Shown one piece after another: positions 1 to 12,131 of a stretch of DNA of 64,000 nucleotides. The stretch is from positions 256,001-320,000 of the forward strand of contig CAXWPL010000004.1 in the NCBI GenBank assembly GCA_963666215.2, given 5' to 3'. The translations under genes were made by a program, and so were the position numbers. Under the pieces are notes generated by a model that was not told where the DNA came from, searched no databases, and worked only from the letters and a program-made list of their open reading frames with translations. Positions within the stretch are counted from its first letter, which is position 1. Every line of letters starts with the position of its first letter. The stretch comes from Acidobacteriota bacterium (GTDB taxonomy: Bacteria; Acidobacteriota; UBA890; WLXD01).

Positions 1-1715
1 GCGGTGCGGCGGGCGGCGAGGATCCTTCACGCCCGAGATGGAACAAGTTCCACACCGCCGCCGAGGCCAACGCGTCGCTCGAGGCCTGGGGTCACGAGTA
101 TCCTGTGCTTACCAGCGTCTACTCGATCGGTGAAACCCTGGCCGGCAGTCCTCTGATGGTCATCGAGATCACCAACAAAGCAACCGGCGCCGCCGAGGAC
201 AAGCCCGCCTACTACTACGACGGCGGCATCCATGCCGGCGAGCTCACCGGCGGCGAGGTGGCGCTGCACTTCGCCTGGTACGTGCTGAGCAACTACGGAG
301 TCGACGAACAGATCACACGCCTCGTCGACACACGGGCGCTCTATGTAAGGCCCAAGTTCAACCCCGACGGGGCCGACATCGCACTGACCTCGGCGCAGAC
401 CCTGCGGAGCACGCCGCGGCCGTACGACAACGACGGCGACGGTCTGCTCGATGAGGACCCGCCCAACGACCTCGACGGCGACGCGCACATCACTCGGATG
501 CGAGTGCCGAACCCTGACGGTGCCTGGTACATCAGCCCCGACGATGCGCGGCTGATGCTGCGCCGGCCCCGGACGGGTGCCGACGGCTTCGGCGGCGGCC
601 CACCGCAGGCCTCGCCAGCGCCGCCGGCGGGCACGCAGTTCTACGACGTGCTCTCCGAGGGCGTCGACGACGACCGCGACGGCCGCACCAACGAGGACGG
701 CATCGGCGGCATCGACATGAACCGCAACTTCCCACGCAACTGGGGGCTCGAGTTCGAACAGAGCGGCGCCGGGCCCTACCCGCTGTCGGAACCAGAGACC
801 GCGGCGACCATCGCGTTTCTGAATTCACACCGCAACATCACCGGCATCTTCCACGGCCACACCTCCGGCGGCTTCGCCTTCCGGTTGCCTTCAACGACGG
901 CCTGGAGCGAGTTCCCGTCCGCCGATCAAGAGCTCATTCTCGAGCAGTCGGCGAAGTACGAGGAGACCACCGGACAACAGGCCCTGCCGAGCTACACCAA
1001 CCCCGAGGTGCATCGCCACGGCACGTTGATCTCGTGGGGCTTCTGGGACTTCGGCGTGGTCGGCTTCGTTCCCGAGTTCTGGCGCGGCATCGGCACCGAC
1101 GACGACAAGGACGGCGAGATTTCGGAGCTCGAGCGCCTGCGGTACCACGACGAGGAACTGGAGAGCTCCTACATCACCGACTGGGCGCCCTATGAACATC
1201 CGGAGCTCGGCACCGTGGAGATCGGCGGCTGGCACTCGAAGTTCGTCAGCCAGAATCCGCCACGCGAGCTCCTGCAGGGCGAGGTGGAGCTCTACGTCCC
1301 CTGGATGCTGTGGCTTGCCGAGATCGCGCCGCAGATCGAGATCTCCGACGTGACCGTAGAAACCGTGCAGCCGCGACAAGGCGACGACGACAGCCTTCGT
1401 CACGTTCGCGTTGAGGTGACCAATACCGGGTACCTGCCGACTCACCTGACACAACGAGCCCTCGACGCCGAGGTCGCGGTGCCCGTGCGCGCCATCGCCA
1501 CCCTTACCGGCGCGGAGTTCCTCGAGGGCAACGGTCGCGTCGATGTCGGCCATCTCGCGGGGACCCGCGACAACGGCGACGCACCTGGCCCGGACCTCAC
1601 GACCGGCGTGGCCGATTTCCTGGTTCGGCTCACCGCACCCACCGCAGAGATGGCGCTGACCGTGGCATCGGAGCGCGGCGGGGTTGTTCGGCAGACCCTA
1701 GCGCTGCAACGCTAA
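1..1715 (+). CDS. M14 family zinc carboxypeptidase (5'-partial)
   Basis: Frame is open from the window start (..RWNKFHT..YPVLTSVYSIG). Contains GGIHAGE zinc motif, NPDG, DMNRNFP, PLSEPET, HGH and DxDxDG Ca-binding loops. Confidence 0.92.
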   Translation, partial: GAAGGEDPSRPRWNKFHTAAEANASLEAWGHEYPVLTSVYSIGETLAGSPLMVIEITNKATGAAEDKPAYYYDGGIHAGELTGGEVALHFAWYVLSNYGVDEQITRLVDTRALYVRPKFNPDGADIALTSAQTLRSTPRPYDNDGDGLLDEDPPNDLDGDAHITRMRVPNPDGAWYISPDDARLMLRRPRTGADGFGGGPPQASPAPPAGTQFYDVLSEGVDDDRDGRTNEDGIGGIDMNRNFPRNWGLEFEQSGAGPYPLSEPETAATIAFLNSHRNITGIFHGHTSGGFAFRLPSTTAWSEFPSADQELILEQSAKYEETTGQQALPSYTNPEVHRHGTLISWGFWDFGVVGFVPEFWRGIGTDDDKDGEISELERLRYHDEELESSYITDWAPYEHPELGTVEIGGWHSKFVSQNPPRELLQGEVELYVPWMLWLAEIAPQIEISDVTVETVQPRQGDDDSLRHVRVEVTNTGYLPTHLTQRALDAEVAVPVRAIATLTGAEFLEGNGRVDVGHLAGTRDNGDAPGPDLTTGVADFLVRLTAPTAEMALTVASERGGVVRQTLALQR

Positions 1716-1881
1716 GAGCGGGTCAACGCCGCAGTGTTCGGGGCGAAGGGCGCTCTGTTCGAAGTCGATTGATCCCCCGCTAGGCGTCGTGATCGCGGAC
1801 GCGCGCACGTCGTAGAATCGACACCACTGCCGAACCTGTGCGGCGCCCACCCGAAGTTCCACCCGACCCTGGAGCACATCA

Positions 1882-2547
1882 ATGGCCAGCCTCATCCTGC
1901 ACGAGCTCACCGGCTCTCCCAACAACGTCAAGGCGCGCATCGCGCTCGGCTACAAGGGCCTCGACTACGATCGCAAGGAGTTCCAGGCCGACTCCTTCCC
2001 CGGCGATCGCTCGCCGATCGTCGACGTCTCGCGACAGCCGCGCCTGCCCGTGCTGCAGCACGGCGAGACGGTAATCTTCGACTCCGGCTCGATCTTGCGC
2101 TACCTGGAAGCGAACTTCCCCGACTCCCCTCCGATCTTCAGCTCCGACTACACGAGCTTCGGTGAGATCGAGGGCTGGGAGTTGTTCGCCCGCACGCAGC
2201 TCGGCGAGCCGCTCGGAATGATGTTCGGCCAGTTCTTCGAGCCAGCGCCCGACGCCGAGGTCATCGCGGGGGCCAACCAGATGCTCAACGAGCGTACAGG
2301 CGCCCTCGAGGAGAAGCTCAGCCAGAGCAGCTTCCTCGTAGGCGATCATCTGACCGCCGCCGACATCGTCACCGCGGCACCGCTCTACCTCGCCGACATG
2401 ACACCGGCGATGGCGAGCCACCCGCTCGCCCAGTTCTTCCAGCCCAACCTGCGCCTCGGTGACGGCCGTGAAGCAACGCGCGCCTGGCTCCGCGCCACCA
2501 TGGCCCACGATGCGATCTTGGGCCAGCGCGAGATGGCAGTGGTCTAG
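1882..2547 (+). CDS. glutathione S-transferase family protein
   Basis: SPN..KARIALGYKG, RLPVL, FDSGSILRYL, FLVGDHLTAADI; GGAG RBS. Confidence 0.92.
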   Translation: MASLILHELTGSPNNVKARIALGYKGLDYDRKEFQADSFPGDRSPIVDVSRQPRLPVLQHGETVIFDSGSILRYLEANFPDSPPIFSSDYTSFGEIEGWELFARTQLGEPLGMMFGQFFEPAPDAEVIAGANQMLNERTGALEEKLSQSSFLVGDHLTAADIVTAAPLYLADMTPAMASHPLAQFFQPNLRLGDGREATRAWLRATMAHDAILGQREMAVV

Positions 2548-2555
2548 CTCGTTCC

Positions 2556-2590
2556 GCGGAGGGCCGGTCCTCAGGGGCCGGCCCTCCCGC
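2556..2590. terminator. GC-rich hairpin between convergent genes
   Basis: GGAGGGCCGGTCC-TCAG-GGGCCGGCCCTCC; no U-tract. Confidence 0.5.
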
Positions 2591-2606
2591 TCCGTAGTGC
2601 CGGCAA

Positions 2607-3131
2607 TCAGTCGTCCGCGTTCAGCAGCGCGTCGATTGCCAGCACTGCCGCGGCCACCCGCTCCTCCACCTCCCCACGAGCCTCGACGAACGGAAGTCCT
2701 CGCTCTGTCAGAGCGCTCCGGAAGAGCTCCTGCATCTCCTCGCGGCGATCGCCGCGGTCGCGCTGATCGCCGTCGGCGGCCCACGGAATGTCGATTGCGG
2801 CCAACACGTACAGGTTGGCGGCACGTTGCGACAGCGCCTCGTCAATCCAGCCCGGGCAGTCGCCGTAGTAGTGACGGCTGTAGATCACGGTGCTGAGCAG
2901 GTCTGTGTCCTGCACGATCACGCGCGACGCCTCGGCCAGCAGCCGATCCTCGGACTCGATCTGGCCACGAGCGATCGCATCAACGTCACCGTACTCAGGA
3001 GCGGCGCCCTTTTCAGCCACGAACTGGCGCGCGTATTCCGGCGCGCACACGGTTGCGTAGTGCTCGGCCAGCGCCCGCGAGAGCGTGGTCTTGCCGGTGC
3101 ACTCGGAGCCTGTGACCACGACTCGAATCAT
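2607..3131 (-). CDS. NadR-type (AAA_28) P-loop kinase/ATPase
   Basis: MIRVVVTGSECTGKTT Walker A, PEYAR, IARGQ, QDTD, DIPWAADGDQR. ATGA overlap with the pnuC stop codon. Confidence 0.88.
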   Translation of the reverse strand: MIRVVVTGSECTGKTTLSRALAEHYATVCAPEYARQFVAEKGAAPEYGDVDAIARGQIESEDRLLAEASRVIVQDTDLLSTVIYSRHYYGDCPGWIDEALSQRAANLYVLAAIDIPWAADGDQRDRGDRREEMQELFRSALTERGLPFVEARGEVEERVAAAVLAIDALLNADD

Positions 3132-3721
3132 GATCGTGCCGCCGCGAGGCCTGAACCGTTCTCGCTGGTGTTCATCGAGCGGCGCCACTGGATGAACCCG
3201 CTAACGGCGAGGACGATGAACACAGCGTACAGTCCGGCCGTCGGGTACAGCTCCTTGTAGAGGAACATGCCAACGTAGAAGACGTTGAGCACGATCCAGA
3301 TGGCCCAGGCGTCGAGCTGTTTGCGGGTTTGCATCCACTGCGCGACTACGCTGAACGCGGTGAGAGTGGAATCCAGAAAAGGCAGCGAGGCGTCGGTGGT
3401 GCGGCTCAGCGTTTGCCCGAGGGTGATGCTGGCCAGTGCGCCACCGCCGGCGAGCAGGAGCCAGGCGCCTCTCGTGGTCCGAGAGACCGGGAGCTCCCCG
3501 CCTCCCTCGCCACCGTGACTCCACGCCCACCAGCCGTACGCCGACATCGCGAAGTACAGGCCTTGCAGGCCCATGTCGGCGTAAAGCTTGGCCTCGTAAA
3601 ACACGAGGCCGTACAGCGCCACGCCAACCATCGCCAGAGGCCAGCACGCGATCACCTGGCGAGTCGTCAGGTAGACCGCTGCCAAGGTGATCACGACGGC
3701 AGCGATTTCGAGCGGGCTCAT
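3128..3721 (-). CDS. pnuC: Pnu-family vitamin transporter (PnuC-like, probably thiamine-specific PnuT)
   Basis: Hydrophobic; LYADMGLQ, YGWWAW, PFLDS, WAIWIVLN (WxxW..N) motifs. Confidence 0.92.
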   Translation of the reverse strand: MSPLEIAAVVITLAAVYLTTRQVIACWPLAMVGVALYGLVFYEAKLYADMGLQGLYFAMSAYGWWAWSHGGEGGGELPVSRTTRGAWLLLAGGGALASITLGQTLSRTTDASLPFLDSTLTAFSVVAQWMQTRKQLDAWAIWIVLNVFYVGMFLYKELYPTAGLYAVFIVLAVSGFIQWRRSMNTSENGSGLAAARS

Positions 3722-3805
3722 GTGTCTAACGCGCCTCGCCGGGCAGTGTCCCGCGCCGCGCTATCGCCGCCCCACACCGGGCAGACTGGTCGGATCGCGA
3801 AAACC

Positions 3806-6223
3806 TCAAAAATCGAACTGTAGCGACACCACCACGTTGCGTGTGGCGAGCGGGTAGTAGAACGGAATGCCGTCGAGCGCATCGCCGCCGGTTCCCCGGG
3901 TAACGAACTGGTAGCTGTAACCGCTGCCGAACTGGTTGTCGCTGTTGACAAGGTTGTTGACGAAGAGAACCAGCCGCGGACGATGCAGCGCAGCCCACCG
4001 CTCGAGCCCGAACGACGCTCGCAGGTCGAGGTTGGTGTACGACGGCAGGCGCAGACTGGCGACGTTGGTGTTGTCGAGCTGCGACTCCGCCACGTGGCGT
4101 CCGACGAGCATCAGGCTGGTCTCGCCACGCGTCCACTCGATACCCAAATTGGCAATCAGGCCGGGCGTCAGCAGCGGCTCGACGTCGACATAGACCGTCG
4201 GCTCGCTACCAACGAACGCGCCGTCCGCATCATAAACGTCGATGAACTGCGTCCACTCGCGAATACGATTGCTGCTGATGTTGAGGCTGTGGAAGGCCGA
4301 CCAGTTCGGTGCCGGCCGCCAGCGCAGGTCGAGCTCGATGCCACGGCGGTAGGAGGTGTCGACATTGCGGCGCAAAGGTAGTCCGATGTCCGAGAGTTCG
4401 CCGGTGAGCGCGATCTCGTCGCGAAACTCCATCGCGTAGACGTTTGCCTGCACCGACCAGCGCCGCGTGTTGACGTTGACGCCCGCCTCGAAGTCCACCA
4501 CCGACTCGACGCGCACCGCCTCGAGATCGTGCCGCACCGTCGCGTTGTCTTCCCCCGACAGCATGTCCAGCCGCCCCGGCTCGCGCTGCGCCCGACCCAC
4601 CGAGGCGTACGCGCTCACACTCGGCGCGAGGTGCACGCGAGCGCCGACCTTGGGGTCGAGGAACGTCCAGCTGACCGACCCGAGATCAATGTCACCCTCG
4701 TAGGAGAAGTCGGCGTAGCGCAGCTGCAGGTCGCCATACAGGAGCCAGTTGTCGCTCAGCCGATACTCGATCTTTCCGAACACATTGGCCGTTTGCTTGA
4801 AGCCGGTGTTCACGTACAGCCGGGTGCTGGCGTCGTCGCCGATCTGCAGGTCGTGGTCGCCGCTGAAGTCGTTGTAGTGCGCACCCACCGAAGCCGAGAA
4901 TCGCTCGCTGTTCTTGCTGAGCGTGATCGTGGAGCCGTAGAACTGCTGATCGATGCCGAACTGCAGCAAGTTGCTCTGCGCCGCCGGGTCGTCCCAAATG
5001 CGGAACCAGCCCTGTGCGCCGTTGTAGTAGGCCGACGCCGTCAGGAGGCCATCGTCGCCAAGCACGCGTGTGTACTTGAGCTGTGCGAAATCCTGGCCGA
5101 AATCGTCGCGCTCCGCGCTATCGAGCGCGTTGAAGCGACGGTTCTGGCTCAGGGTGTCCGGATCAACGGCAAGAAACGAAAGCTGCGACCGTTCTTTCCC
5201 AAAGAACGCGAACAACTTCAGCGAGTCGCGCTCGCCGCGCCAACCAGCGTTCGCGAACACCGTCCGGTGCTCGCTGCCGGAACGGTCGCGGTAGCCGTCG
5301 GTGTTGGCGTAAGAAAAGCGCCCGCCCAGGTGGAAGCCGCTTCCGAGCACCCCCGATTCGTAGCCAAGCGATACCCGCTGGGTGTCGTACGCACCGACGG
5401 TCACACGAGCGTCTCCGCCGCTTCGAGTCGCGGCCGCGGGGCTGGCGAAGTTGATCGAGCCGCCGTACGACGGCGACCCTACCGACGACGTGCCGACCCC
5501 GCGCTGGATCTGGATGCTGTCGACCGCGCTCGTGAAGTCGCTGAAGTTGTTGAAGAAGAGCGCGTGGTCGGCAGGGTCGTTCAACGGTGCCCCATCGAGC
5601 GTGATGTTGATGCGGCTCTGCTGAATTCCGCGCAGGCTCAGGTAGGAGTAGTTGGAGCCAGCGCCGGAGTCCGAGTACCAGGTGATCGAGGGCGTGTGCT
5701 GCAACAGCGCCGGGGTGTCCTGCCCGTGACTGAACATCTCGATTTCCTGATGAGTCATGTTCCGCTTGGTGACCGGAACGTCGTCACCGGCACGGATCCC
5801 GACGACCGCCACCGACTCCTCGACCGTGGTGATCCACTCGAGACGCAGCTCGAGCTCGACTCCATCCACCGAGATCCTCGCAGAGGCTCGAACACCCTTG
5901 AACTCCGGATGGATTACCTCGAGATCGAGCACGCCAGGCGGAAGATGGAGAGCGAAGCGACCGTCCTCGTCGGTGGTCGCCCATGCTCCGTCGACTGGCA
6001 GCGCCGATTGGACCGTAGCTCCTGCCACTGGCTCACCCGTGGGGTCGACGACGACGCCGCGTACTTCGACCGTTGCCTGGGCCGCGTGCACAGGTAGCGC
6101 GAAGACAACTTGGAACAAGAGTCCGGTCCACATCGCGGCCACCGCCAGCAACGCGCCCGATCTCGAGGCGCAGAGGCATCGACGAGGCATCTGCGAGTGG
6201 GTTCGATGACGTGAGTGGACCAT
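3806..6223 (-). CDS. TonB-dependent receptor, putative thiamine transporter
   Basis: Carboxypeptidase-regulatory-like N-domain, plug (LRG..RINITLDGAPLND, IQIQRG), C-terminal Phe. GGAGAAGGA RBS before ATG at 6223. Lies downstream of a TPP riboswitch. Confidence 0.92.
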   Translation of the reverse strand: MVHSRHRTHSQMPRRCLCASRSGALLAVAAMWTGLLFQVVFALPVHAAQATVEVRGVVVDPTGEPVAGATVQSALPVDGAWATTDEDGRFALHLPPGVLDLEVIHPEFKGVRASARISVDGVELELRLEWITTVEESVAVVGIRAGDDVPVTKRNMTHQEIEMFSHGQDTPALLQHTPSITWYSDSGAGSNYSYLSLRGIQQSRINITLDGAPLNDPADHALFFNNFSDFTSAVDSIQIQRGVGTSSVGSPSYGGSINFASPAAATRSGGDARVTVGAYDTQRVSLGYESGVLGSGFHLGGRFSYANTDGYRDRSGSEHRTVFANAGWRGERDSLKLFAFFGKERSQLSFLAVDPDTLSQNRRFNALDSAERDDFGQDFAQLKYTRVLGDDGLLTASAYYNGAQGWFRIWDDPAAQSNLLQFGIDQQFYGSTITLSKNSERFSASVGAHYNDFSGDHDLQIGDDASTRLYVNTGFKQTANVFGKIEYRLSDNWLLYGDLQLRYADFSYEGDIDLGSVSWTFLDPKVGARVHLAPSVSAYASVGRAQREPGRLDMLSGEDNATVRHDLEAVRVESVVDFEAGVNVNTRRWSVQANVYAMEFRDEIALTGELSDIGLPLRRNVDTSYRRGIELDLRWRPAPNWSAFHSLNISSNRIREWTQFIDVYDADGAFVGSEPTVYVDVEPLLTPGLIANLGIEWTRGETSLMLVGRHVAESQLDNTNVASLRLPSYTNLDLRASFGLERWAALHRPRLVLFVNNLVNSDNQFGSGYSYQFVTRGTGGDALDGIPFYYPLATRNVVVSLQFDF

Positions 6224-6304
6224 GGTCCTTCTCCGTGTACGCAGCGCGCGACAGGCACGCTGACTTGCCGACCGATCGAGTACCGCCACGCTACGCGCGG
6301 CCGC

Positions 6305-6376
6305 CGCTCCCTACGCCGGTGCTAACCGGATCAGGTTCGAGGGTCTGATCTCAGGCCGAATGACCACCCCTAGGCT
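6305..6376 (-). ncRNA. TPP (thi-box) riboswitch
   Basis: Minus strand reads CCTAGGGGT-GGTCATTCGGCC-TGAGA-TCAGACCC-TCGAACCTGAT-CCGGTTAGCACCGG-CGTAGGGAGC, matching the conserved GGG..CUGAGA..ACCC..GAACCUGAU..GCGUAGGGA core. Confidence 0.93.
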
Positions 6377-6498
6377 TTCGTATGCACGATTATGACGCCG
6401 TTCCATGCGCCAAGTCAAATCACGGTGGCGCTAGATCTCCCGGGCCGGAGAACCGCCTCGATCGCGGCTAGACTGAAACACGCTCCGACCCGCTACAC

Positions 6499-7447
6499 GA
6501 TGAGCCTCGTGGTCGGCAAGTCGGTGGGGCACATGATTCGCACGCTGAAGCGCAGATGGGTGAGGGCGTCGTGGCAACGTCGCATCGCGCGTGGACGCGT
6601 GAATCTGGATCTGAACCGCGCCGTCCCCGCCGCCGCGACCGACGAGGCGCTGGGGCGGGCGCTTGGCGCGGCAGTCGAGACCCTTGACATTCCGCGAAGC
6701 GCATACGACGCCGCGGCGAGGCATCCCGAACTGCGTGATCGGCATCGAGACGGTCATGTGCATCGCCAGATTCTCGAGTACACGACGTCGCTCTATCTGC
6801 TGGCGCCAGCGAGCAACCACGTGGTGCTCGACCTCGCGGGTGGTGACACCACCTGGCTGACGCTCGTGAGCGACACCGTGACGCCGGCGCGGCTGATCCT
6901 GCAGGACCCCCTCGTGACCAAGGCGGTGGCCGAGGCCAGTGCCGACCTCATCGAACGGATCGGTGGTTCGGCGGCGTCACTCCCGTTGCCCGACGCGTCG
7001 GTCGACCGCATTGCCTGCCATCACTCGATCGAGCACTTCCGAGGTGACGACGATATCGGCGCGGCCCGCGAGATCGCGCGCGTGCTCGCTCCTGGGGGCC
7101 GTGCGGTCGTACTGCCTGTGTTCGTGACGCCGCGTTCGATGGAGCTGTGGAACCGCAAGCCCGAGCTCCCGCTCCAAGAGCCGTCGGCCGACCTGATGAT
7201 CGACCGTACCTCCACCCTCCCAGGGTGGGGGCCGTTCGAGGGCTTCGCGCGCTCCTACGACCCGGAAGCGCTCGCGCGCCGACTTCTGCAGCCTCTGCGC
7301 GACAGCGGATGCCGCGTGCACGTCGCGAACGCGACGCTGGAGGGCGCCGTCGTGCCGGATCTGGCGTTCAATCGCGAGCTGCCGGCGCTCGCCCGCCCCA
7401 TGCGTTTGCTCGTCGTGGAAGGCGAGGATCGCAGCCACCTAGGCTAG
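6499..7447 (+). CDS. class I SAM-dependent methyltransferase
   Basis: VVLDLAGG motif I, LPLPDASVD, SIEHF, EIARVLAPGG. Start uncertain. Confidence 0.8.
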
Positions 7448-8389
7448 GTCCTGTGCGCGAATGCCGAGTCGATCGGCGTACCTTCCCTCACGCGCCCAGT
7501 CGTCGGGAAGCTCCTCTTTCCACATCTCACCCAGGTACGACTGCCCAAAAGGCCCGAAGTGGGCGCCGAGGCACGGATAAGGTGCGAGCTCGCCGAAGAC
7601 CGGTCCTCGTTTCGGCATGTAGAAATCCAGTCGAACGGCGATCTCGTAAAGCCGGCCGATCTTGGCTGCGCATCGCAACAGCTCGTCGAGGCGCGCGGGG
7701 GCGTCGCAGCGGGCATCTCGACCGTGCTTTCCGAAGAGATTGTGCTCGAATGCTTCCCATTCCGGCGAGTAGAACCGATTCACGGTACGCGCCGTCCCGA
7801 CCCGGCGACGAAGAACCCGAATCGCGGCAATGCGACTCCCGAACATGAAACAGTTGTACTCGGTCGGCAAGGGCCCGTCGTCCCGATGGTCCTGGATGAG
7901 CTCCTCGACCAGGAGAGGATTCCCCAAATGGGACCACCGTTCCGCAGCCAGCCGCCTGCCAAGATCGCGAGGCGTGAGGTCGATCTGCCGGAAGGCTTCA
8001 CGTCCGTCCACCATCACGTATACGCCGTGGCAGTCGCCGCCGAAGCAGGGCTTCAAAACGAAGCGTCGCGGCAGGGATTCGAAAGGAATCCTGCTCACAT
8101 GGCGTCCCGAGGCGAGAAGTTTCGGAACCCCGACACCAGCGCGCTCGGCGAAGATACGCGAATTCAACTTCTTCGCCAGAATGCGCTGCCAATCGTCGCA
8201 ACAACGCCAGGAGTCGTCCGGGTCTGTCACGTGGCGCGGCGGCGTCAGCTCTTTGAATCTGTGTGCCCGCCATCGCAGCTTCTGGATTGGGTTGGCAAGC
8301 TGCGGGTGCCACCAACGCCGGTAGCGAGCCCGAAAACGACGGCCAACCTCTCCGAGCGGCAATCGTCCATGACGAAACGACTCACTCAC
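7439..8389 (-). CDS. TupA-like ATP-grasp amidoligase
   Basis: GVPKL, LPRRFVLKP, LLVEELI, EYNCFMF, VRLDFY, PVFGELAPYP. GTG start immediately after the pxpC stop. Confidence 0.8.
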   Translation of the reverse strand: MSESFRHGRLPLGEVGRRFRARYRRWWHPQLANPIQKLRWRAHRFKELTPPRHVTDPDDSWRCCDDWQRILAKKLNSRIFAERAGVGVPKLLASGRHVSRIPFESLPRRFVLKPCFGGDCHGVYVMVDGREAFRQIDLTPRDLGRRLAAERWSHLGNPLLVEELIQDHRDDGPLPTEYNCFMFGSRIAAIRVLRRRVGTARTVNRFYSPEWEAFEHNLFGKHGRDARCDAPARLDELLRCAAKIGRLYEIAVRLDFYMPKRGPVFGELAPYPCLGAHFGPFGQSYLGEMWKEELPDDWAREGRYADRLGIRAQDLA

Positions 8390-8390
8390 T

Positions 8391-9410
8391 TCACGACTCC
8401 ACCCCGCTGACGACACCGCTGATCAGGTTGCCGCCTCGCAGAGCAGTCTCGTCGATGCTCGGACTGGCCGCAACAACGTTGGCGGCGCGCCGGCAAAGAT
8501 CGTCCTCCAAACGGCGCGCGGCGGCCTCGGCGGCGGCCACGGAGACGGCCTCGAAGCGCAACCGGTCTCTGGGCCTCAGCCGTCCGACGGCCGGCAGATC
8601 GGCCGACATCACCGTGGCGATCTTGGGATAACCACCGGTGGTTTGGTGATCGGCGAGCAGCAGGATCGGTTGGCCCGATCCGGGCACCTGAATCGCCCCG
8701 GTGACGATGCCGTCCGAGACGATGTCGTGACCCTCGCGGTGCTCGAGATCGGGGCCCGCGAGACGCATCCCCATGCGATCGGCATCGGCGGAAACCTGGA
8801 AGGGCTCGCTGAGGAACTTCTCGATCGCGATCGTCGTGAAGAGCTGGTGCTGCGGCCCGAGGACGACGCGAAGCCGCTCACACGGAGTCAGATCGGGCGG
8901 CTCGGCGAGCCGCACCTCGGGGCGCTCGTCGGCGGCGTCGCGGACGAGCGGCAAAAGGTCGCCCGACCGCAGAGCCCGTCCCTCGAAGCCACCTAGCGCG
9001 CTGCGGCTCGTCGTCGACCAGCTGCCGAGCACGGGATCGAGAGCCAGACCGCCGCCAACCGCGAGGTAGCCGCACCACGCGACCGTGGCGCCAACACGAA
9101 GTTGCTCGCCGCGCTCCAGGCGCACGCTGTGCCAGGCCGGCACGACGCGGGAACGAGCCCCCAGCACCTCGATCTCGGCGCTGGCCGCCACCCTCACCGA
9201 ATCGGCGGCAACGGCGAGGGTGAGTCCGCCGTAGAAGAGCTCGAGCGCCGCTGTCGTGCCGTCGTTGCCGACGACGGCGTTGACCAGCCGCAGCGAGACT
9301 GCGTCGAGCGCACCCGACACTGGCACACCGAGCGCTTGATAGCCGAAGCGCCCGAAGTCTTGCACCGTCGTGTGCAGGGCCGGTTGGACGATCTCCAGGG
9401 CCGCGGTCAC
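8391..9410 (-). CDS. pxpC: 5-oxoprolinase subunit C
   Basis: TTVQDFGRFG, SGALD, DRMGMRL, GAIQVP, DHQTTGGYPKI. Confidence 0.93.
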   Translation of the reverse strand: MTAALEIVQPALHTTVQDFGRFGYQALGVPVSGALDAVSLRLVNAVVGNDGTTAALELFYGGLTLAVAADSVRVAASAEIEVLGARSRVVPAWHSVRLERGEQLRVGATVAWCGYLAVGGGLALDPVLGSWSTTSRSALGGFEGRALRSGDLLPLVRDAADERPEVRLAEPPDLTPCERLRVVLGPQHQLFTTIAIEKFLSEPFQVSADADRMGMRLAGPDLEHREGHDIVSDGIVTGAIQVPGSGQPILLLADHQTTGGYPKIATVMSADLPAVGRLRPRDRLRFEAVSVAAAEAAARRLEDDLCRRAANVVAASPSIDETALRGGNLISGVVSGVES

Positions 9411-10156
9411 GGAACCGGCTCCGAGGTCGGCACGAGCTCGCCCTTGGCAGCTGCCACGGCCAGGCGGTCGAACTCGGCCCGCGAGACCGAGTCGAACGCC
9501 ACCTGGTCGCCAGGTCGCAGCACCGCCGGCGGCTCCCGAGTGGGATCGAAAAGAGAGAGCGGCGGCGTGCGGCCGATCAGATGCCAGCCCCCCGGGTTCT
9601 CGGCGGTGTAGATCGCGGTCAGGCTGGTGGCTATCGCAACCGAGCCCGCCGGAACCCGGACACGCGGCGTCGAGCGTCGAGGCAGCTGGAGCTCCTCGGG
9701 AACGTCTCCCATATAGGGAAAGCCGGGCAGGAAGCCGAGCATGTACACGTGGTAGCGTCCCGCGGCATGGCGACCAACGACTTCAGCGGGCGACAGATCG
9801 GCCTGGAGCGCGACCTCTTCGAGATCGGGTGCCAGCTCACCCTCGTAGCAAACAGGCAGCCGCCAGAGACGCGTGGGCTCGGCGTTCTCGCCAGGGGCGT
9901 CGACGAGAGCTTCGATCTCCGCGGCGAGCCGCTCCGACGACGTTACGCGAGGGTCGTAGTGGACCAACAGCGAGCGGAATGTCGGCACCGTCTCCACCAC
10001 GCCGGCCATCGCACCGGCAACCGCGGCCTTGGCGATACGCTCGCCGAGACGCACGACCTCGGTGCTCAGCCCGCGATCGATGCGGTTGCCGAGCTCGACG
10101 GTCAGCGCGGTGTCACCGGAAGGCAGGAAGCGTGGCAATAGGGTCAATTCACTCAA
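9407..10156 (-). CDS. pxpB: 5-oxoprolinase subunit B
   Basis: GDTALTVELG, VPTFRSLLVHYDP, LGFLPGFPY, PGGWHLIGRT. Start trimmed because the longer ORF overlaps pxpA. Confidence 0.92.
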   Translation of the reverse strand: MSELTLLPRFLPSGDTALTVELGNRIDRGLSTEVVRLGERIAKAAVAGAMAGVVETVPTFRSLLVHYDPRVTSSERLAAEIEALVDAPGENAEPTRLWRLPVCYEGELAPDLEEVALQADLSPAEVVGRHAAGRYHVYMLGFLPGFPYMGDVPEELQLPRRSTPRVRVPAGSVAIATSLTAIYTAENPGGWHLIGRTPPLSLFDPTREPPAVLRPGDQVAFDSVSRAEFDRLAVAAAKGELVPTSEPVP

Positions 10157-10207
10157 TTCCCGAAGTCGCGAGAGTCGCGCCGCAGCAATCGGAGGAGCTT
10201 GGGCGTC

Positions 10208-10984
10208 ATGGTGACTGAGATCAACCTCAATGCTGACATGGGTGAGGGCTTCGGAGCCTACGACATCGGCGACGACGAATCTCTCCTGAAGATCATCCGT
10301 TCGGCCAACGTTGCCTGTGGCTTCCACGCCGGCGACCCGGTTGTCATGCGCCGGCTCGTCATGCGGGCCCAGCGCGAAGGCGTCAGCGTGGGAGCCCACC
10401 CCGGCTTTCCGGACCTCGCGGGCTTCGGCCGGCGACGCCTGGACATGAAGCCCGACGAGCTCGAGTACGCCGTTGCCTACCAGATCGGTGCGCTGCAGGC
10501 CATGGCCGCCTATGGTGGGCTGCCCGTCACCCACGTCAAGGCGCACGGCGCGCTCAACAACATGGCCGCCGAAAGCCCCGAGCTGGCCAACGCCATCGGC
10601 AAGGCGATCCAGACCGTTGATTCGAGCCTGATCTACCTGGCTCCCGCCGGGTCAGAGATGCAGCGGGCGGGCGAGGAGCTCGGACTGCGCGTGGCCACCG
10701 AGGGCTTCGCCGACCGCACCTACGAGGACGACGGCAACCTGACGTCGCGAAAGATCGACGGCAGCGTGATCCGAGATCCGCAGGTCGCACGCGATCGGGT
10801 CGTGCAGATGGTCCAGGAGCAGACCATCACGGCGCGCTCCGGCAAGAAGATCCCCTGTCGCATCAACAGCATCTGCGTCCACGGCGACGAGCCGACGGCG
10901 ATCACCGTGGCCCGCGCCGTCCGCGAAGGCCTCGAAGCCGCAGGCATCGCCATCGTGCCGCTACCCGAGCTGTCGATCGGCTGA
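10208..10984 (+). CDS. pxpA: 5-oxoprolinase subunit A (LamB/YcsF)
   Basis: LNADMGEGFG, ANVACGFHAGDP, GAHP, HVKAHGALNN, ICVHGD. Confidence 0.95.
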   Translation: MVTEINLNADMGEGFGAYDIGDDESLLKIIRSANVACGFHAGDPVVMRRLVMRAQREGVSVGAHPGFPDLAGFGRRRLDMKPDELEYAVAYQIGALQAMAAYGGLPVTHVKAHGALNNMAAESPELANAIGKAIQTVDSSLIYLAPAGSEMQRAGEELGLRVATEGFADRTYEDDGNLTSRKIDGSVIRDPQVARDRVVQMVQEQTITARSGKKIPCRINSICVHGDEPTAITVARAVREGLEAAGIAIVPLPELSIG

Positions 10985-11025
10985 GCGCCGTACCCCACGG
11001 AGTCCTTCTTCGTGTGCCGCTCCCG

Positions 11026-11545
11026 CTAGTCGGTGACTCCCAACGGAACCTCGTCGCCGAACACTTGCGTACGCTTCATGATCCTGCGCTGGGACGACGG
11101 GAACGGCTCGCGGTAGTGCAGCGTCGGCCGGTTGTCCCAGATCACCAGATCCTTCACCGCCCAATCGTGCGTGAAAGCCAGCTCCGGCCGCGCCAGGTGG
11201 TCGAAGAGCCGTTGCAGTAGCGCGTCACTGTCGTCGCGCGATAAGCCCAGAACGCGGCGCGTGAAATGGGGGCTGACGTAGAGGCTGCGCCGGCCCGTCT
11301 CCGGGTGCACTCGTACGACGGGATGGTCCACCGACTCCGGAGGGTTCTGACCCTCCTCCGGGTGACGGTGCACCGCGCGCAGTGGCAGGATGCGCTCCTT
11401 CGTGGCCTGGTCCAGGGTCTCGTAGGCCGCCGTTCCGCTGACCCACGTGGTTCGCCCTCCGGTGGCCGGCACCTCGAGGGCGCGGAGCACCGAGATCGTG
11501 CCGGGTTTCGGCATGTACGCCAGGTCGGAGTGGGAGCCCAGAATC
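11026..11545 (-). pseudogene. TauD/TfdA dioxygenase, N-terminally truncated
   Basis: HSDLAY (HxD), HPVVRVHPETGR, IWDNRPTLH..R. An in-frame stop lies just upstream of HxD, so the N-terminal third is absent. Confidence 0.85.
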
Positions 11546-11566
11546 GGGACGGAACGTCGGGCAGGC

Positions 11567-11820
11567 TCATCCGCGGTTCACCGCCTCGCGCAGCTCCTTG
11601 TCACTGACACTCAGTCGCCGCGCCTCCCGCCTCAGCTCCTCAACCGCGTGCTTGAGCCGCTCGCGCCGTTCCATCACGCTCAGCTGCGGCGGCTCCGACG
11701 CAACCCGACTCCCGGCGCCACTGTTGGTCACGATGACGCCATCGCTCTCGAGCTCGACGTAGGCCCGCGAGACGGTGTTGCGGTTTACCCGCAGCTGTAC
11801 GGCGAGCTCGCGCATCGTCG
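11567..11820 (-). pseudogene. GntR (YtrA-like) regulator, N-terminally truncated
   Basis: TMRELAVQLRVNRNTVSRAYVELESDG HTH is present but the first helix is missing. Confidence 0.85.
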
Positions 11821-12131
11821 ACTGGGTCGTCTGTTTGGATCTCGGCGAGCTCACTACCAACGAGCCGCTCGACGATCTTCGCGAGCAGTACAGCGAGTGG
11901 CGAGTGCGCGTGCAGCGCGGCCGGATGCCGGCTCACTTCTACGAGCCTTACGTGGTTGCGCAGGATGTCAACTGCCACCAAGCACGCCTTTGGGTGGCCG
12001 ACGGCGAGCGCCATGCCGACGCGTTCGCGGCACAACATCACGTCGACATCGAACGCCACCCGGTGAACCTCGAGCAGCTCTTCCCGATTCTCGTGAAGCG
12101 CCGAGGCGAAAGCGAAGGAGATCGAGCATGA
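11810..12131 (+). pseudogene. C-terminal remnant of an ABC transporter ATPase
   Basis: RIVDWVVCLDLGEL...LDDLREQY...VNLEQLF is the region after the H-loop. No Walker motifs. ATGA-coupled to the downstream membrane gene. Confidence 0.75.

Follow-up and report, generated by a model that had tools for sequence, protein, structure and literature searches.

A thiamine pyrophosphate riboswitch operon of an Acidobacteriota bacterium joins a Pnu transporter to a stand-alone NadR-type kinase: a candidate thiamine uptake-and-trap system

A 64,000-nucleotide stretch of the genome of an Acidobacteriota bacterium (assembly GCA_963666215.2, contig CAXWPL010000004.1, positions 256,001 to 320,000; hereafter the window, whose numbering is used throughout) carries on its minus strand an operon in which a thiamine pyrophosphate (TPP) riboswitch precedes genes for a TonB-dependent receptor, a Pnu-family transporter and a stand-alone P-loop kinase of the AAA_28 family. 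The operon is very probably a riboswitch-controlled unit for the uptake and trapping of thiamine, and its kinase, judged from sequence and genome content, is most likely a thiamine kinase that would supply thiamine monophosphate (TMP) to ThiL. To the reading as a whole, namely that this bacterium cannot make thiamine and takes it up through the operon, the kinase forming TMP and ThiL converting it to TPP, we assign a probability of about 0.7.

Operon organization

A reading of the window made from sequence alone had described a TPP aptamer, a TonB receptor, a Pnu transporter and an ATGA-coupled P-loop protein resembling the ribosylnicotinamide kinase (RNK) domain of NadR, and all four were found on the minus strand where it had placed them. 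The operon and its presumptive borders comprise the following features.

6290-6381, minus strand: TPP riboswitch aptamer (THI element; RF00059)
3806-6223, minus strand: TonB-dependent outer-membrane receptor, OMthi-like, 805 amino acids (aa) from the ATG at 6223 (Pfam domains)
3128-3721, minus strand: Pnu-family facilitator, read as a putative thiamine transporter PnuT, 197 aa (PF04973)
2607-3131, minus strand: stand-alone AAA_28 P-loop kinase, NadR RNK-like, candidate thiamine kinase, 174 aa (PF13521)
6389-6418, minus strand: sigma-70-like promoter, TTGACT-18 nt-CATAAT, 10 of 12 consensus positions, directly 5' of the aptamer (consensus match only)
2556-2590, minus strand: G+C-rich hairpin 3' of the kinase stop codon, between the operon and a convergent glutathione S-transferase (GST)-like gene (fold)

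The kinase ATG and the pnu stop codon overlap as ATGA, and the gap between receptor and pnu measures 84 nucleotides (nt; 3722-3805). A promoter scan of 2400-6600 returned a single promoter-like site, at 6418-6389, with shuffled sequences averaging 0.5, and no such site in the receptor-pnu gap. Near the gap, the terminator scan gave one weak hairpin (3835-3820) over the 3' end and stop codon of the receptor gene, the numbers of sites not exceeding those in shuffled sequence. The hairpin at 2590-2556 may act as a terminator of the operon; the fold of 2545-2612 reaches -32.5 kcal/mol (z -2.1), there is no U-tract, and the hairpin is absent from the terminator scan list. In gene order, spacing and recurrence the operon fits the OMthi-PnuT-kinase type, and RNA covers the receptor gene only, with two short contigs of the metatranscriptome X20 (4970-5135 and 5664-5863); DNA carry-over is possible, and the contigs have no bearing on co-transcription or regulation. 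Two further RNA runs gave no contigs for the operon.

The operon is bordered by the GST-like gene (1882-2547), convergent with it, and by a methyltransferase-like gene (6392-7447) that diverges from it. The product of a long frame 5' of the GST-like gene (105-1715) would measure about 536 aa and contain an insert rich in DGDG.

TPP riboswitch

The aptamer was matched by the Rfam TPP model, as the sequence-only reading had expected, over the full length of RF00059 (model positions 1-105; E 5.9e-10), its score of 54.2 bits lying just below the gathering score of 54.3; in window positions 1-12000 nothing was listed at the gathering threshold, and the aptamer surfaced only in E-value mode. In the model alignment the conserved core is intact (CUGAGA; ACCUGAUCCGGUUAGCACCGGCGUAGGGA), the CUGAGA and ACCUGAUC...GCGUAGGGA cores are present together with P1, P2, P4 and P5, and the variable P3 hairpin alone is shortened. 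Nine of 14 related loci submitted to Rfam have an aptamer in the equivalent place that scores 61.8-73.2 bits; with this and the intact cores as sequence grounds, we accept 6290-6381 as a TPP riboswitch.

Forty-one columns are invariant among 10 aptamers of the receptor-Pnu-kinase operon type. An operon-specific covariance model, trained on ten such aptamers, scores the window aptamer at 95.1 bits, partly by construction since that aptamer is among the ten. The aptamer lies between the promoter-like site and the receptor start, and the 4.65-Mb genome gave no second TPP match. The fold of the leader (6200-6400) is no more stable than shuffles (z +0.98), and no U-tract terminator was found 3' of the aptamer. 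No riboswitch of a nicotinamide adenine dinucleotide (NAD) class was reported at gathering in the 14 loci or in window positions 1-12000. Many contigs of a DNA metagenome run have their breaks or joins at 6302-6343, within the conserved core of the riboswitch, as expected for a sequence common to many organisms in the sample.

Receptor and Pnu transporter

The receptor start was placed at the ATG at 6223, which has a GGAG motif upstream; the longest frame begins at a GTG at 6289. The protein has the Pfam domains CarboxypepD_reg, Plug and TonB_dep_Rec_b-barrel, and no specific NCBIfam model matched it at cut-off. Homologues with 34-66% identity sit between riboswitch and pnu in related loci.

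The transporter matches PF04973 with 187.6 bits, aligns to the PnuC of PDB entry 4QTN (E 3.8e-9) and is encoded by the sole Pnu gene found in the genome. It also passes the cut-off of the PnuC model TIGR01528 (83 bits against 42), and therefore automatic annotation would name it PnuC, which bears out the expectation that such annotation would speak of NAD salvage. TPP-riboswitch control is the criterion that separates PnuT from PnuC (PMC7749635), and by it the window gene falls in the PnuT subgroup. A second criterion combines PF04973 with the motif WxxW(x)3D/N in transmembrane segment 6, defined in work on the PnuT of Shewanella woodyi, whose D166 is needed for thiamine binding (PMC5749112). 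In the window protein the motif reads WAIWIVLN, and D occupies the last position in at least 90% of 32 aligned Pnu sequences, the window's included. A predicted complex of Pnu and kinase scored 0.00 and has no bearing either way.

A stand-alone NadR-type kinase

The 174-aa kinase is a NadR-type kinase domain that stands alone. It matches PF13521 (AAA_28) with 131 bits, AAA_18 being the only other entry in its Pfam list, and is homologous to the RNK domain of NadR (EC 2.7.1.22). Against full-length NadR models it stays far below cut-off, with 94.2 bits against 341 for TIGR01526 (model positions 164-319 only) and 62.9 against 201 for NF005988 (C-terminal kinase part alone), and no nicotinamide mononucleotide (NMN) adenylyltransferase (NMNAT) is fused to it. 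A profile of 26 close relatives found NadR RNK domains as the nearest PDB sequences (8x7f, 1.9e-19; 1lw7, 1.4e-16; also 9x6f and 6gye), and the AlphaFold model (pLDDT 95.9) superposes on 8x7f with a TM-score of 0.89, a root-mean-square deviation of 1.8 Å and 28% identity, thymidylate kinases coming next; the domain had thus been recognised correctly from sequence. Public sources name the relatives 'ATP-binding protein' or 'NadR type nicotinamide-nucleotide adenylyltransferase'. The kinase belongs neither to ThiK (TIGR02721, APH fold), which is not among the three NCBIfam models listed for it, nor to the thiamine pyrophosphokinase (TPK)/ThiN/Tnr3 family (PF04263).

We built a tree of 197 kinase domains, which took in the kinase domain of 119 of 150 listed database representatives. 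The clade of the window kinase (support 96) has 37 rows, comprising 28 riboswitch operons, 7 truncated loci and 2 of unknown context. In four related loci (L048, L055, L065 and L077) a single protein of about 330 aa combines an HxGH NMNAT-like nucleotidyltransferase (GKFMPPHAGHL) as its N-terminal half with the kinase as its C-terminal half. These NMNAT-fused kinase genes belong to metagenome-assembled genomes (MAGs) of Thermoanaerobaculia:

L048, 1-1017: NMNAT-fused kinase gene
L055, 4500-5519: NMNAT-fused kinase gene
L065, 3128-4147: NMNAT-fused kinase gene
L077, 4539-5522: NMNAT-fused kinase gene

Each is the sole kinase of this type in its genome, and three of the four genomes have no ThiE; in L065 the contig ends inside pnu, so that receptor and riboswitch fall outside the sequence. 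Two database proteins of 370 aa (P0136 and P0157) hold a Pnu domain followed by an AAA_28 kinase domain in one chain. Open frames of 370-390 aa at kinase matches were considered as further Pnu-kinase fusions and rejected, pnu lying in another frame in the five that were fetched. Other AAA_28 fusions involve DUF4301 (P0194, P0221), aldose 1-epimerase (P0235) and an NMNAT-like N-terminus with a methyltransferase (P0180, its NMNAT part identified by script). The bacterium's own genome also encodes a second, distant AAA_28 protein of 176 aa (59-60.8 bits; G000:C5:1257703-1258167, L003:1498-2028), which has a short-chain dehydrogenase (SDR) gene and an IS481-type helix-turn-helix (HTH) gene as neighbours and no Pnu gene nearby.

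Thiamine genes of the genome

The assembly consists of 5 contigs (4.65 Mb) and is 91.7% complete, so that absences from it are not proof. It gave no match for TPK (PF04263), ThiE (PF02581), ThiC or ThiG; the best ThiK match (TIGR02721) reaches 20 bits and lies elsewhere than the kinase, and Phos_pyr_kin has only a 31-bit match. ThiL is present with 210 bits (G000:C5:295380-296453). With ThiE, ThiC, ThiG, TPK and ThiK absent and ThiL present, the conversion of thiamine to TMP is the one missing reaction, and in a cell with ThiL but without ThiE a thiamine kinase is the only known source of TMP. The sequence-only reading had proposed the AAA_28 protein as a possible unrecognised kinase of thiamine or a precursor. 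Since neither hydroxymethylpyrimidine (HMP) nor hydroxyethylthiazole (HET) is of use where ThiE is lacking, the candidates reduce to thiamine alone, and the proposal draws further support from the distribution of ThiE, TPK and ThiL described below.

Recurrence of the operon

A scan of one genome per species gave 336 stretches with relatives of the kinase, of which the best 80 (L014-L093) were used. They come from several classes of Acidobacteriota, from Gemmatimonadota, three Desulfovibrionaceae, one Methylococcaceae MAG and one bin labelled Chloroflexi. A Pnu gene adjoins the kinase gene in 78 of them, the other two stopping at a contig end, and the operon-specific covariance model found a TPP aptamer in 51. 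The riboswitch stands before the receptor in 50 of the 51 loci that have the receptor's upstream DNA, and the pairing of AAA_28 and pnu genes under a TPP riboswitch recurs in the complete order of aptamer, receptor, pnu and kinase on one strand in 44 of the 80 loci. Together with the gene content of the genomes, these counts support the proposal that the riboswitch marks vitamin B1 and not NAD salvage. Between receptor and pnu, most relatives have 0-84 nt, and L029, L018 and L031 have 0-20 nt.

Departures from this order are of several kinds. In L047, L049 and L062 an aptamer-receptor unit faces the pnu-kinase pair in convergent orientation; L048, L055 and L077 have pnu on the side of aptamer and receptor, with only the kinase gene convergent to this unit; and in L063 the aptamer is distant and unlinked. 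Among the 29 loci without an aptamer, 10 are ended by contig ends, one (L036) has a transposase, and 18 are pnu-kinase pairs without a receptor. With L063 included, the unlinked pairs are distributed over Gemmatimonadota (12), Acidobacteriota (4) and Desulfovibrionaceae (3). In L035, L046, L052, L064 and L093 the receptor or other genes are in pieces, which may reflect assembly errors or decay.

In L036 a DDE transposase (DDE_Tnp_1_5; 1315-2304) occupies the expected place of the riboswitch and the N-terminus of the receptor is missing; the same genome holds a second copy of the operon with an intact riboswitch (L025). In the Halodesulfovibrio locus L081, the pnu-kinase pair is surrounded by seven tRNA matches of 64.4 bits each, all on the same strand and inside a 5-kb span (3951-9047).

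Distribution of kinase and thiamine genes in two phyla

Kinase (cut-off E<=1e-20), TPK and ThiE were searched for in one set of 301 evenly drawn genomes of the window's own phylum. The kinase was found in 38 and TPK in 17, and no genome had both. The 50 ThiE-less genomes comprise 28 with the kinase, 11 with TPK and 11 with neither, and the 28 span 11 families; the kinase is matched in 10 of the 251 genomes that have ThiE. The alternation is also seen between close relatives. In family f1 all five genomes of genus g4 have ThiE and no kinase, and genera g1-g3 are ThiE-less with the kinase in five of six genomes (G164 has neither); four genomes of genus g9 and two of g71 have ThiE and no kinase, and one further genome in each shows the reverse. 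These tallies of kinase-free genomes with ThiE take in three that are flagged as unpublished (G049, G152 and G024) and that enter into no other claim.

ThiL was searched for in 62 genomes, namely the 38 with the kinase, 13 with TPK and no real ThiE, and the 11 with neither. It was found in 35 of the 38 kinase genomes and in 26 of the 28 that are ThiE-less (two of the 26 having contig-end fragments only), and above cut-off in one of the 11 ThiE-less TPK genomes (1/13 with the two genomes of marginal ThiE). ThiL is dispensable with a pyrophosphokinase and retained with the AAA_28 kinase, which matches the prediction for a kinase converting thiamine to TMP. Of the known alternatives, for which the sequence-only reading had suggested a survey, ThiK was above cut-off in 0 of 66 kinase-bearing genomes, and TPK accompanied the kinase in 0 of the 301.

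Twenty-two of the 38 kinase genomes have a TPP riboswitch at most 4 kb upstream of the kinase, with contig and strand shared, and in all 22 it is the sole TPP riboswitch found. Twenty-one of these genomes are ThiE-less and the twenty-second (G107) has only a marginal ThiE match. The other 16 are divided between eight with a TPP riboswitch elsewhere or on another contig and eight with none.

The second phylum was represented by 151 evenly drawn Gemmatimonadota genomes, centred on the genome of L058, whose ThiE-positive rows take in two genomes flagged as unpublished (G422 and G383). The kinase was found in 23, ThiE was missing from 24 and TPK occurred in none; kinase genes are present in 19 of the 24 ThiE-less genomes against 4 of the 127 with ThiE (18/23 against 4/127 without the centre genome). 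In the genomes of a set of 28 loci that lack a co-directional upstream riboswitch or come from other phyla, ThiE was found in 10, ThiL in 25 and TPK in one, the small bin labelled Chloroflexi. The link between the kinase and thiamine auxotrophy holds also for pairs outside riboswitch control, and we therefore argue that the kinase family serves thiamine beyond this operon.

Alternative explanations

A number of observations weigh against the thiamine reading, beginning with the score of the aptamer, 0.1 bit short of gathering. Ten own-phylum genomes carry both ThiE and a kinase match, five of these matches being the weakest (E 1e-22 to 1e-30), and the odds ratio of 31 in Fisher's test (28/22 against 10/241) overstates independence owing to the kinship of the genomes. 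All three Desulfovibrionaceae genomes with pnu-kinase pairs have ThiE, and these pairs may be a different case. ThiL is kept in 10 of the 11 genomes with neither kinase nor TPK, and therefore its retention does not strictly require the kinase; four of these genomes, of the window's own family or order and fragmented or incomplete, are likely explained by assembly gaps. No linked receptor or riboswitch accompanies the pair in 19 of the 80 loci, and a riboswitch search with filters off in nine loci without one (eight unlinked pairs and L036) gave a best E of 2.2. These unlinked pairs would fit a lineage-specific accident, in which the riboswitch governs the receptor only and pnu and kinase are transcribed separately from the 84-nt gap; that gap could hold a promoter, the riboswitch lies elsewhere or on another contig in 8 of the 38 own-phylum kinase genomes, and no contig in the RNA data bridges the genes. 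We consider such an accident very improbable, given the same gene order in 44 of the 80 loci, over several Acidobacteriota classes and the Methylococcaceae MAG, gaps as short as 0-20 nt, a promoter scan that is empty in the gap with the single weak hairpin nearby, and a link to thiamine auxotrophy that persists without an adjacent riboswitch.

Other adverse points concern the proteins, and with them the kinase could still be a ribosylnicotinamide kinase and Pnu a carrier of nicotinamide riboside (NR), either as an NAD-salvage pair beside a thiamine-regulated receptor or as a system for both vitamins. Among solved structures NadR RNK domains come closest to the kinase, the transporter passes the PnuC cut-off, and residue 146 of the window Pnu (3284-3286) is N, as in PnuC 4QTN, where the PnuT of S. 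woodyi has D166. NMNAT-fused forms, to which the four Thermoanaerobaculia proteins add, make up 20 of the 119 kept database representatives, with up to 48% identity to the window kinase in the kinase part (P0142); 16 of the 20 fall in the other half of the tree and four in the window kinase's half, P0122 and P0142 grouping with L048, L055, L065 and L077, and P0143 and P0151 inside the large clade. NR-kinase ancestry is thus close, and these points mark the kinase family as a recent offshoot of NadR-type kinases. Because the family motif HYYGxCPxW occurs partly in fused relatives too, no specificity residues were defined; a search for positions separating riboswitch-linked from NMNAT-fused kinases gave no clean one, the fused group being heterogeneous. 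Two related Gemmatimonadota loci encode a 420-aa QRPTase_N protein, PncB-like and thus of NAD-salvage type, 73 nt upstream of the pnu-kinase pair (L049:3073-4335, L062:3073-4332), a gene dismissed as a regular neighbour because it is present in only 2 of the 80 loci. Even so, NR salvage is quite unlikely to be the role of a unit that lies as a whole behind a TPP riboswitch, with the short receptor-pnu spacing of most relatives and the ATGA overlap, with no NAD-class riboswitch in the regions searched and with a kinase that has no NMNAT domain to use NMN; it would have no reason to track the loss of ThiE (28/50 against 10/251; 19/24 against 4/127), to exclude TPK or to accompany ThiL. A thiamine-regulon kinase or ATPase with another target, be it a thiamine analogue, a degradation product, TMP or regulation of the transporter, would be in keeping with the varied AAA_28 fusions, which argue for varied substrates, and with the lack of a residue-level tie between the window kinase and thiamine. 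We hold this to be unlikely, as thiamine-to-TMP is the one reaction missing from the genome, a TMP kinase would duplicate ThiL, precursors are useless without ThiE, and the logic of a Pnu facilitator demands a trapping kinase for the vitamin transported (PMC5749112).

Proposed mechanism and known systems

In the model that we infer for the substrates of receptor, Pnu and kinase, for TMP as the product and for the action of the riboswitch on expression, low TPP would allow the operon to be expressed, the TonB-dependent receptor would carry thiamine over the outer membrane, and Pnu, functionally a PnuT, would let it diffuse across the inner membrane. The AAA_28 kinase would then use ATP to phosphorylate the hydroxyethyl group, the resulting TMP would be trapped for want of an exit through Pnu, ThiL, encoded elsewhere, would turn it into TPP, and TPP would close the riboswitch. 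The PnuT of S. woodyi works by facilitated diffusion and binds thiamine and not TMP or TPP, and trapping by a kinase therefore works (PMC5749112); the window Pnu shares with it the family and the WxxW(x)3D/N motif, with N in place of D166, a likeness drawn via the motif.

The closest known arrangement is that of Bacteroidetes, where OMthi (BT2390), PnuT (BT2396) and Tnr3/TPK (BT2397) are under TPP riboswitches (PMC5613172). The TPP riboswitch, TonB receptor, Pnu facilitator, cytoplasmic kinase and the proposed scheme of uptake followed by trapping are shared. In contrast, the window has a P-loop AAA_28 kinase as trapping enzyme where Bacteroidetes have a thiamine pyrophosphokinase, TPK was found neither in the genome itself nor in any of the 38 own-phylum kinase genomes, and the probable product is TMP, which needs ThiL, whereas Tnr3/TPK gives TPP in one step. 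Of the two kinds of partner that had been named for PnuT, TPK (Tnr3) is thereby documented (PMC5613172), and for a ThiK-like kinase no paper was found.

The RNK domain of NadR works with PnuC in the salvage of nicotinamide riboside, with structures 1LW7, 8X7F and 6GYE (PMC7221760). The window kinase has a homologous P-loop fold, is likewise coupled to a Pnu protein and would also act on a hydroxyl group of a cationic vitamin; unlike NadR, it is without NMNAT and HTH domains and far under the NadR cut-offs, stands under a TPP riboswitch and not NAD control, and follows thiamine auxotrophy in its occurrence. In E. coli, ThiK (YcfN) and ThiL form a salvage route from thiamine via TMP to TPP (PMC3020362). 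The proposed chemistry and pathway of the window kinase are the same, whereas its sequence and fold are unrelated to those of ThiK. We know of no link between ThiK and Pnu transporters or riboswitches. In acI actinobacteria, pnuC genes under TPP riboswitches are described without other thiamine enzymes, and no kinase is named (PMC5301498).

Significance

Relative to these systems, what would be new is that an RNK-like P-loop kinase replaces the pyrophosphokinase, by which the route becomes a two-step one of ThiK type via ThiL. No paper was found that assigns thiamine to an AAA_28 or RNK-like kinase, and older papers and supplements could hold an earlier mention. In genome reconstructions thiamine salvage has been scored by ThiK, ThiM and ThiN/TPK (PMC6593275).

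There is a very slim chance that the stand-alone family and the fused Thermoanaerobaculia enzymes are widespread unrecognised thiamine kinases, a second, non-homologous EC 2.7.1.89, with the fusions adenylylating thiamine phosphate. To our knowledge the gene for the activity that forms adenosine thiamine di/triphosphate is still to be named, and the fusion of L048, L055, L065 and L077 would, if this were true, be the first.

If the kinase makes TMP, many Acidobacteriota and Gemmatimonadota would own a complete thiamine salvage pathway that has been missed or called NAD salvage, and the Pnu and kinase genes of these bacteria would be misnamed. The survival of ThiL in genomes without a thiamine phosphate synthase would be explained, and the family would offer a clean case of a vitamin kinase that switched its vitamin along with its Pnu partner.

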